IMG/VR virus record: IMGVR_UViG_648276668_000012
Source: a virus
Taxonomy: Duplodnaviria > Heunggongvirae > Uroviricota > Caudoviricetes
Reading direction: 5' to 3' (one strand)
Length of the DNA: 25,312 nucleotides
A program made the position numbers and the translations under genes. Shown piece after piece: positions 1,135-1,882 of this stretch (position 1 is the first letter of the stretch; each line of letters begins with the position of its first letter). The notes below the pieces were generated by a model that worked only from the letters and a program-made list of their open reading frames with translations, ran no database searches and had not been told where the DNA came from.

Positions 1135-1506
1135 TCATAAGTACCGATATGATTGCGGGGCCGTTATGTTATCACCTAATGAACTTAGATGAAGTGGTTG
1201 GTCATAGATTTTTAGATTACCAATTTCTATAGCAAAGGCCTTTTCTTTGCTATGAAAATATGAGTCAAAAAATTGTTTACTGATACCCGCGTATTGGCTT
1301 GTTTTTTCCCATACAATACTCGGCTTGCCTTCTATAACATCTGCAATGTCAAATTCAGCAACAACTTTACCGACAGGCATTGTTGAATAAATAACCACAG
1401 ATTTTACATCCGGGTTTTTGAAAATACCTTTCCTGAATTCAAACTTCTTTGTTCCATTAAGAATTTTTTCAACAAATTCAGGTTTTATTGACAATAACAC
1501 TTTCAT
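1135..1506 (-). CDS. ASCH (ASC-1 homology, PUA-like fold) domain protein, 123 aa
   Basis: The N-terminus MKVLLSIKPEFVEKILNGTKKFEFRK, followed by VVIYSTMPVGKVVAEFDI and AFAIEIGNLKIYDQPL, matches the ASCH pattern as I remember it. The start overlaps the upstream gene by 29 nt. Very AT-rich. Confidence 0.7.
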   Translation of the reverse strand: MKVLLSIKPEFVEKILNGTKKFEFRKGIFKNPDVKSVVIYSTMPVGKVVAEFDIADVIEGKPSIVWEKTSQYAGISKQFFDSYFHSKEKAFAIEIGNLKIYDQPLHLSSLGDNITAPQSYRYL

Positions 1507-1882
1507 CTACAGCACCAAGTTTAATTATATCGTCAAATTGCTTATCGGTTAATTTAACAACACCCCAACGGTTTTTAGGATTCAAACCAATTTCTTCGAT
1601 TAGTTTAGCACGATTTATTCTTTTAGGTAAAGCTAGATTATATGTAAAACTAATAATGTAAGGGTATCTTTTTGTTTGATAGAATTTTTTTAATTCATTT
1701 TCAGAAAACACACTGTATCGTGCACAATACTGTATGAATTCATTTTCACTATGAAAAGAATCAATATATCTAATATCTTCAACTACACATAATGACGTTG
1801 CGACAGAACGATAGTATGCTCTGTTCTCTTCGTCACTTGTTCTGTAAACAACTAATATGTCATGTTTTTTATTTTTGTTACA
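1478..1882 (-). CDS. C-terminal segment (-1 frame) of the middle cargo protein; PUA/ASCH-like by pattern
   Basis: The frame is open for 134 codons from 1882. The first 57 codons (1882-1712) contain no ATG, GTG or TTG, so the track only finds a GTG at 1711. The sequence ...HDILVVYRTSDEENRAYYRSVATSLCVVEDI...YPYIISFTYNLALPKRINRAKL continues naturally from the 2553-1852 ORF. Confidence 0.6.
   Translation of the reverse strand, partial: CNKNKKHDILVVYRTSDEENRAYYRSVATSLCVVEDIRYIDSFHSENEFIQYCARYSVFSENELKKFYQTKRYPYIISFTYNLALPKRINRAKLIEEIGLNPKNRWGVVKLTDKQFDDIIKLGAVDESVIVNKT

Follow-up and report, generated by a model that had tools for sequence, protein, structure and literature searches.

A PDC-M11-type acetyltransferase and ASCH gene pair in an Escherichia coli prophage, and the plausibility of a writer/eraser mechanism

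Could two proteins encoded side by side in a prophage act as the writer and the eraser of one and the same nucleic-acid mark? The question is raised by positions 1,135–1,882 of a 25,312-nucleotide stretch of Caudoviricetes DNA (IMG/VR record IMGVR_UViG_648276668_000012; the whole stretch is called the window below), where a first-pass annotation, made from the letters alone, had described two PUA/ASCH-like modules next to an acetyltransferase-like domain and proposed a toxin-antidote-like logic. All three parts are indeed present: a GNAT acetyltransferase domain, a PUA-like domain fused to it, and a separate ASCH protein. The gene pair is already known, being catalogued, with identical copies annotated in RefSeq; we are close to certain that the locus is the PADLOC candidate system PDC-M11, i.e. 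the “GNAT-EVE + ASCH” operon of Bell, Wolf and Koonin 2020 (PMC7641849). As judged from the sequences, a writer/eraser logic is plausible; it re-derives the prediction published for this operon. A conserved gene overlap and a third, membrane-protein partner are small additions to the known system. The features of the pair are as follows.

1135..1506, minus strand: ASCH protein of 123 amino acids (PADLOC PDC-M11B), by Pfam ASCH, PDC-M11B and its match to ZmASCH
1478..2553, minus strand: gene of the GNAT–PUA-like acetyltransferase (PADLOC PDC-M11A; “GNAT-EVE” of Bell et al.), by profile matches
1852..2553 and 1478..1711, minus strand: open reading frames of 233 and 77 amino acids, in different frames, into which this gene is split in the window
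2080..2553, minus strand: GNAT acetyltransferase domain, about residues 1–158
1478..2022, minus strand: PUA-like (ASCH/EVE-type) domain of the acetyltransferase, devoid of the GxKxxExR octapeptide
1478..1506, minus strand: 29 nucleotides shared out of frame by the 3' end of the acetyltransferase gene and the start of the ASCH gene, read from the sequence
1858..1864, minus strand: contraction of A7 to A6 on the coding strand, which puts most of the PUA-like half out of frame with the GNAT half
2256..2277, minus strand: garbled acetyl-CoA loop with three one-base contractions, from alignment to loci L001, L002 and L004

For the search with PDC-M11A, the translation was used with one frameshift repaired. 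It matches this profile with an E value of 4.5e-129, residues 3–356 aligning with profile positions 11–357 of 357, and phrog_6345 with an E value of 7e-153; the 123-residue protein matches PDC-M11B over its full length (E 3.9e-49). Both PADLOC profiles are thus matched end to end, by adjacent and co-oriented genes, A with B beside it. Pfam gave no family at threshold for the 359-residue protein, and the PHROG families that exist for both proteins are of unknown function. Some PDC-M11A profiles are longer, with about 90–165 extra N-terminal positions, as expected for PIN-GNAT-EVE forms. In the description of Bell et al., a GNAT carries an EVE domain at its C-terminus and, at times, a PIN domain at its N-terminus; an ASCH gene is part of “almost all” such operons, an AAA_17 ATPase gene is frequent too, and the PIN-less form is common in beta- and gamma-proteobacterial prophages (PMC7641849). 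Our locus shares with this operon the N-terminal GNAT fold fused to a C-terminal PUA-like domain, the separate ASCH gene adjacent in the same operon, the occasional AAA_17 partner and the gamma-proteobacterial prophage location. It departs from PDC-M11, which is a two-gene model, in that the window locus and a sub-lineage of its relatives add a membrane protein of 356 amino acids.

The repair was needed on account of the split acetyltransferase gene. The cassette occurs at 99.4–99.5% identity in six complete E. coli genomes (megablast), and in those relatives the middle gene is a single coding sequence of 1,080 nucleotides, annotated “N-acetyltransferase”, whose product has 359 amino acids (WP_096838308.1). 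A base-by-base alignment to the 99.5%-identical prophages shows the window to be short of four bases, all in homopolymers. One contraction, at about 1864, reduces A7 to A6 on the coding strand and breaks the reading frame; the others, at 2256 (T8 to T7 and A6 to A5) and at 2277 (T8 to T7), total three bases, and the invariant segment TLRGQRFLKK reads HYEDNVFKK in the window. This garbling helps to explain why no canonical GNAT acetyl-CoA motif had been visible at first pass, an observation that was correct, the family motif being itself non-canonical. Other early readings of this gene do not survive the repair. What had been taken for a single preceding protein consists of three peptides stitched across the frameshift: the stretch YLLSIYPKF..., which had been placed within 1135–1882, lies at about 1969–2019 in the 233-residue frame, and the contraction near 1864 puts HDILVVYRT and YIISFTYNLALPKRI out of frame with it.

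These four contractions are probably errors of one old draft assembly, that of E. coli TA143, and not biology. The exact 233-residue product is found on one public contig only, from this strain (EGI32598.1, GCA_000176615.2, scaffold GL884207.1), as against more than 500 contigs for intact 359-residue forms; moreover a second gene of the window, tail-fibre gene H, carries a homopolymer frameshift (A5 to A6 at about 23980, plus strand), so that, compared with the intact gene of E. coli A30, the frame changes after residue 28. A broken form confined to a single draft assembly, together with homopolymer errors in two genes, thus argues for an artefact. One-base errors in homopolymer length are the classic signature of pyrosequencing, and the TA143 assembly was presumably built from such (454) reads. 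Two further length differences from the closest E. coli relative appear intergenic: C5 to C4 at 17192, just past the gene of the terminase small subunit, and A7 to A6 with a substitution at 9528–9535, downstream of a replication gene.

The distribution of the errors nevertheless weighs against an artefact: among homopolymer runs of 6 bases or more, 4 of 8 are contracted in the acetyltransferase gene, compared with about 2 of 36 altered elsewhere in the 25 kb, and longer runs nearby (T8 at 2130, A8 at 3405) are unaltered. It would rather favor a decaying remnant, in which the acetyltransferase gene of this strain has truly been inactivated, perhaps under selection against a toxic gene, leaving intact only the ASCH and membrane-protein genes. 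We regard such decay as unlikely, since the broken product is limited to a single contig of a single draft assembly, every change is a one-base error in homopolymer length, and the essential gene H is affected too. A programmed –1 ribosomal frameshift at the slippery heptamer A_AAA_AAC was also considered and rejected: all relatives are one A longer and have a continuous frame of 359 residues, and only one assembly has the broken form. The practical lesson is that an apparent split gene and a missing acetyl-CoA motif most likely reflect homopolymer errors of an old draft. As a model the E. coli prophage copy is convenient, provided that an intact allele (WP_096838308.1, for example) is taken and not the sequence of the window.

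Once the frame is restored, the two halves of the acetyltransferase can be recognized. A profile built from 52 homologues matches the GNAT protein PaiA (E 7.6e-5, residues 4–146), and the AlphaFold model of an 83%-identical homologue displays two domains (predicted local distance difference test, pLDDT, 89.6; predicted template modelling score, pTM, 0.87). The check suggested at first pass, i.e. profile-profile searches and structure prediction for GNAT and PUA-like folds, therefore came out positive for both. The family loop R95-G96-Q-R98-F-L-K101-K102 lies at the beta4-alpha3 position and aligns with the GLGK loop of PaiA; the segment TLRGQRFLKK occupies the position where GNATs bind the pyrophosphate of acetyl-CoA. 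In all 52 homologues R95, G96, R98, K101 and K102 of this loop are invariant, and so are many polar residues of the PUA-like domain.

The PUA-like half is harder to name. Its best match among PUA-like structures is ZmASCH (5GUQ/5GUS); in Pfam, 9 of the 52 members give sub-threshold EVE matches and there is no ASCH match, and the domain is homologous to one sequence of the EVE data set of Bell et al. The catalytic ASCH octapeptide GxKxxExR is absent from it, for which reason the fused module probably serves for reading or targeting, and less likely as a second eraser. A second catalytic ASCH is likewise not supported, on this ground and because the profile-profile likeness is confined to the first strand and helix. 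The parallel that had been drawn between the two PUA-like modules holds in part: YLLSIYPKF... against LLSIKPEF... is the sole stretch, first strand plus helix, that hhalign aligns between the fused module and the ASCH protein (P 9e-4, probability 23%, 40 columns). The resemblance of the two modules is weak at the level of sequence and strong at the level of the fold. Besides, the halves of the acetyltransferase have separate PHROG families, phrog_30943 (193 positions) for the PUA-like half and phrog_13728 (144 positions, annotated acetyltransferase) for the other; phages thus also have the fusion in split form.

The 123-residue protein, whose N-terminus had been read as ASCH-type, is a true ASCH protein. 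Besides its PDC-M11B match, it scores with Pfam ASCH (PF04266) at an E value of 2.6e-6 (28.5 bits for a gathering cut-off of 21.2), and its nearest solved relative is ZmASCH (5GUQ/5GUS, E 5e-10). The octapeptide G18-T-K20-K-F-E23-F-R25 is intact and of the Glu type, GxKxxExR; across the ASCH family, G18, K20, E23, R25, Y40, T42 and P117-Q118-S119 are invariant. The exact sequence of 123 residues is present on 534 contigs. To judge from these conserved positions, the acetyltransferase and the ASCH protein both look active in the family.

Which known ASCH protein should serve as the guide? E. coli YqfB had been put forward at first pass, and the analogy is right as to the ASCH fold, the shared Lys and Arg of the octapeptide, and the precedent of an amidohydrolase for the role of eraser. 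It fails at the octapeptide itself: YqfB is of the type GxKxxTxR, with Thr where the window protein, like ZmASCH, has Glu (GKTR versus GKER). Furthermore YqfB is a housekeeping gene without GNAT pairing, whose product is efficient on the free nucleoside (10.64898/2026.02.27.708502). We thus rejected the ASCH protein as an orthologue of YqfB, on account of the Glu-type octapeptide and of ZmASCH as the nearest solved relative. The latter keeps GxKxxExR, and its Tyr47 and Ser128 are equivalent to Y40 and S119 of the window protein; it differs in being a stand-alone protein of 148 amino acids with no reported GNAT partner, and its Lys53 is not positionally conserved, the window protein having G46 there with K47 beside it. 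The activities of ZmASCH are weak and disputed, between an RNase (PMC5615036) and the removal of N4-acetylcytidine (ac4C) from tRNA, seen in vitro only (10.64898/2026.02.27.708502).

The relation between the two genes was compared in 80 genome loci from many phyla, the overlap being scored in 78. An ASCH neighbor stands beside the acetyltransferase gene in every one of the 80, and the ASCH start lies inside the 3' end of the acetyltransferase gene in 73/78 loci, by 23 nucleotides in 65 and by 29 nucleotides in 8; the window has the 29-nucleotide version. This overlap spans Proteobacteria, Bacteroidota, Firmicutes, Verrucomicrobia and Campylobacterota. So deep a conservation of dual-coding sequence speaks for a coupling of translation, with the two proteins made in a fixed ratio. 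The pair is widespread, in many phyla and in prophages of E. coli, Salmonella and Klebsiella, and each protein forms about 1,700 clusters at 90% identity.

From these elements the following mechanism may be drawn, which we hold tentatively and at somewhat less than even confidence. The PUA-like domain would dock the enzyme on a nucleic acid or a nucleotide, most likely RNA or tRNA; the GNAT domain would then acetylate an amine of the docked target; the co-translated ASCH protein would counteract this, most likely by hydrolysing the acetyl-amide through the invariant Lys20 and Glu23, or else by competing for the same substrate; and the pair would thereby form a reversible-modification, toxin-antidote-like module in prophage-host or prophage-phage conflict. 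Bell et al. read the operon in much the same way, as toxin-antitoxin-like, and considered that GNAT-EVE might acetylate aminoacyl-tRNA (PMC7641849). The role of eraser is supported by a recent preprint, in which all 19 ASCH proteins tested, Glu-type ones included, removed ac4C from tRNA in vitro, the Lys and Glu of the octapeptide being essential (10.64898/2026.02.27.708502). If the predicted logic holds, this would be the first conflict system based on reversible nucleic-acid acetylation, and it would give a physiological role to the bacterial Glu-type ASCH proteins, whose function, RNase or ac4C eraser, is debated.

The nearest models of such a logic differ in their parts. The likeness to TacAT, AtaRT and ItaRT is conceptual, a GNAT toxin acting on aminoacyl-tRNA being the model invoked by Bell et al. 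(PMC7641849); in our locus a PUA-like domain is joined to the GNAT, which is twice as large as these toxins of about 170 amino acids, and the candidate antidote is the product of the downstream ASCH gene. In the cassette we found no open reading frame or Pfam match for a ribbon-helix-helix (RHH)/DUF1778 antitoxin, unlike in the TacT and AtaT systems named at first pass, and a classical GNAT/RHH toxin-antitoxin pair was rejected. In DarTG there is a precedent for an antitoxin that works as an enzyme and undoes the modification of a nucleic acid. The ADP-ribosylation domains of that system are absent from ours.

Several observations weigh against the writer/eraser mechanism and should be set beside it. 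The canonical motif A of GNATs (Q/R-x-x-G-x-G/A) is not found, the family having RGQR in its stead, though the fold and the position are right. ZmASCH is inactive on free ac4C and does not significantly lower tRNA ac4C in cells (10.64898/2026.02.27.708502); it was first described as a weak RNase specific for single-stranded RNA (PMC5615036), and the ASCH protein could therefore be an effector rather than an antidote. In 4 of the 80 loci, from Vibrio, Photobacterium and Shewanella, the ASCH gene is on the opposite strand, next to an AAA_17 kinase gene in at least 3 of them (L016, L019, L029), so that a strict translational coupling is not obligatory. At last PADLOC lists PDC-M11 as a candidate only, one strain survey mentions it as a predicted candidate, and we found in the searchable literature no experiment on any family member and no report of phage protection: the substrate, the toxicity and the anti-phage role are all inferred.

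The reported RNase activity opens the first alternative, in which ASCH, as an RNase of the ZmASCH kind, would be the effector, with the GNAT-PUA protein as its sensor or regulator, for example by acetylating and silencing ASCH or a host factor until infection. The cleavage of single-stranded RNA by ZmASCH in vitro and the conservation of the Tyr47 and Ser128 equivalents, Y40 and S119, are consistent with such a scheme. Yet the reported activity is weak (PMC5615036) and the same set of residues supports an amidohydrolase; moreover, in known pairs the usual toxins are the GNAT domains, and the XRE-ASCH fusions resemble an antitoxin architecture (PMC7641849). We consider this exchange of roles decidedly improbable.

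The nature of the docked target opens a second one. Bell et al. (PMC7641849) cite Iyer et al. 2013 for a proposal of DNA-base acetylation, and it is in the form cited there that we consider it: GNAT-PUA would acetylate a DNA base and ASCH would read or remove the mark, the target being either self DNA, marked epigenetically, or an amino-bearing hypermodified base of a phage. It fits well with the known reading of modified DNA bases by PUA-like domains of the EVE and ASCH kinds, and with the fusions of ASCH to HsdS and to XRE helix-turn-helix domains, which Bell et al. took to suggest the binding of modified DNA (PMC7641849). On the other hand the related PIN-GNAT-EVE fusions point to RNA (PMC7641849), the nearest solved ASCH relative acts on single-stranded RNA and tRNA, and neither a nuclease nor another DNA-directed effector is conserved among the 80 loci. 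A DNA target appears to us quite unlikely, and RNA or tRNA stays the favored substrate of the writer/eraser pair.

A third alternative comes from the kinase. An AAA_17 partner, with weak matches to adenylate and cytidylate kinases, is encoded in 16 of the 80 loci, and free ac4C is hydrolysed by YqfB-type and several other ASCH proteins (10.64898/2026.02.27.708502); both facts would suit a small-molecule chemistry, in which the pair would put an acetyl group on a free nucleoside or nucleotide and take it off again, to deplete a pool or to signal. However, only a fifth of the loci carry the kinase, and ZmASCH, the nearest relative, shows no activity towards free ac4C; its positively charged cleft, like the PUA-like fold, is suited to polynucleotides (PMC5615036). 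We hold this chemistry to be very improbable.

In the window the pair is preceded by a third gene.

2581..3651, minus strand: protein of 356 amino acids, probable start at 3645; a beta-sandwich, then two C-terminal transmembrane helices

This protein has no family match in Pfam, PADLOC or PHROG. Its model (pLDDT 85.8) shows a two-lobed beta-sandwich followed by the two C-terminal transmembrane helices; as a signal peptide is not evident at the N-terminus (the sequence being read by eye), this arrangement points to a cytoplasmic domain with a tail anchor. With 34 clusters the family is small. Its gene precedes the pair in the enterobacterial prophages L005–L007, one Vibrio locus (L019) and one from Methylophilus (L045) likewise have a homologue in the vicinity of the pair, and the metagenomic contig L089 (3767–6953) has the same three-gene order with a counterpart of 25% identity. 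The cassette of L089 stands two genes from an MmeI-like N6_Mtase/Eco57I restriction-modification gene, a setting that suggests a defence island. In the Vibrio P2-like prophages L016 and L019 (about 2800–10900) the system is split: the acetyltransferase follows a CI-like gene and a gene for 506–523 amino acids, while ASCH and AAA_17 converge from the other strand beside a P2-type integrase, and L019 adds a gene like that of the 356-residue protein.

Further recurrences of the family were examined at loci L085–L089, L092 and L093. Among seven distant members, ASCH is adjacent in 6 and a GNAT in 5, the seventh being at a contig end. A variant order was found in Vibrio alginolyticus, Photobacterium damselae, Cedecea neteri and one further contig: ASCH is divergent from a gene like that of the 356-residue protein, which is followed by a stand-alone GNAT of 157–208 amino acids; in the Vibrio and Photobacterium loci AAA_17 accompanies ASCH. 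By contrast, in E. coli WP5-W18-ESBL-11 (L003, 6458–7240), whose pair is 76% identical, an unrelated gene of 260 amino acids, without Pfam or PHROG match, takes the place of the membrane-protein gene; the third gene is therefore facultative. The CI repressor gene of this locus is also longer, 900 nucleotides. The tail-anchored protein is thus probably an optional third component, absent from the PADLOC model of PDC-M11.

One might then imagine a three-part module of acetylation-based immunity or addiction, in which the GNAT-PUA writer would acetylate a base or an aminoacyl group on RNA (or DNA), the ASCH eraser would hold it in check, and the membrane protein would be the sensor or effector. 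The second architecture, where ASCH diverges from the membrane-protein-like gene and a stand-alone GNAT, supports the link between the three; the scheme as a whole is, in our opinion, rather unlikely. If true, it would be a counterpart of DarTG for reversible nucleic-acid acetylation.

The three genes form a low-GC accessory cassette in a P2/186-like E. coli prophage, with the integrase gene on one side and the CI repressor gene on the other. The flanking genes are the following.

1..1056, minus strand: integrase of the P2/186 type, an open reading frame annotated “phage integrase” in relatives, with Pfam Phage_integrase on the source contig
3674..4327, minus strand: CI repressor of the 186 type, annotated “phage repressor protein CI”, with Pfam Phage_CI_repr

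Read on the minus strand from 4327 down to 1, the order is CI, the 356-, 233- and 123-residue frames, and the integrase, so that the cassette genes are co-directional with int and cI. The GC content is 27–34% over 1100–3700 and 45–54% in the phage backbone, which points to an acquired cassette. A scan of the cassette for promoters and terminators gave nothing above the shuffled expectation; co-transcription with cI and int is therefore deduced from gene orientation only. None of 50,697 phage records matched the cassette by megablast. Among 5,426 complete E. coli genomes, 35 match the cassette-region query, 7 of them with at least 80% covered, and 2,260 have a full or partial match to the 25-kb prophage window; in complete genomes a near-identical prophage adjoins rcdA and ybjJ.

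The remainder of the window carries P2/186-like prophage genes for replication, portal, terminase, capsid, lysis and tail. A second variable region lies between the replication and portal genes, at 9469–11678, which we take to be the position of the P2 “old” hotspot; it holds a DinI-like gene (9749–10054, plus strand), an open reading frame of 141 amino acids (10214–10639, minus strand) and a SieB-like superinfection-exclusion gene (11088–11633, plus strand; Pfam SieB, E 2.2e-22).

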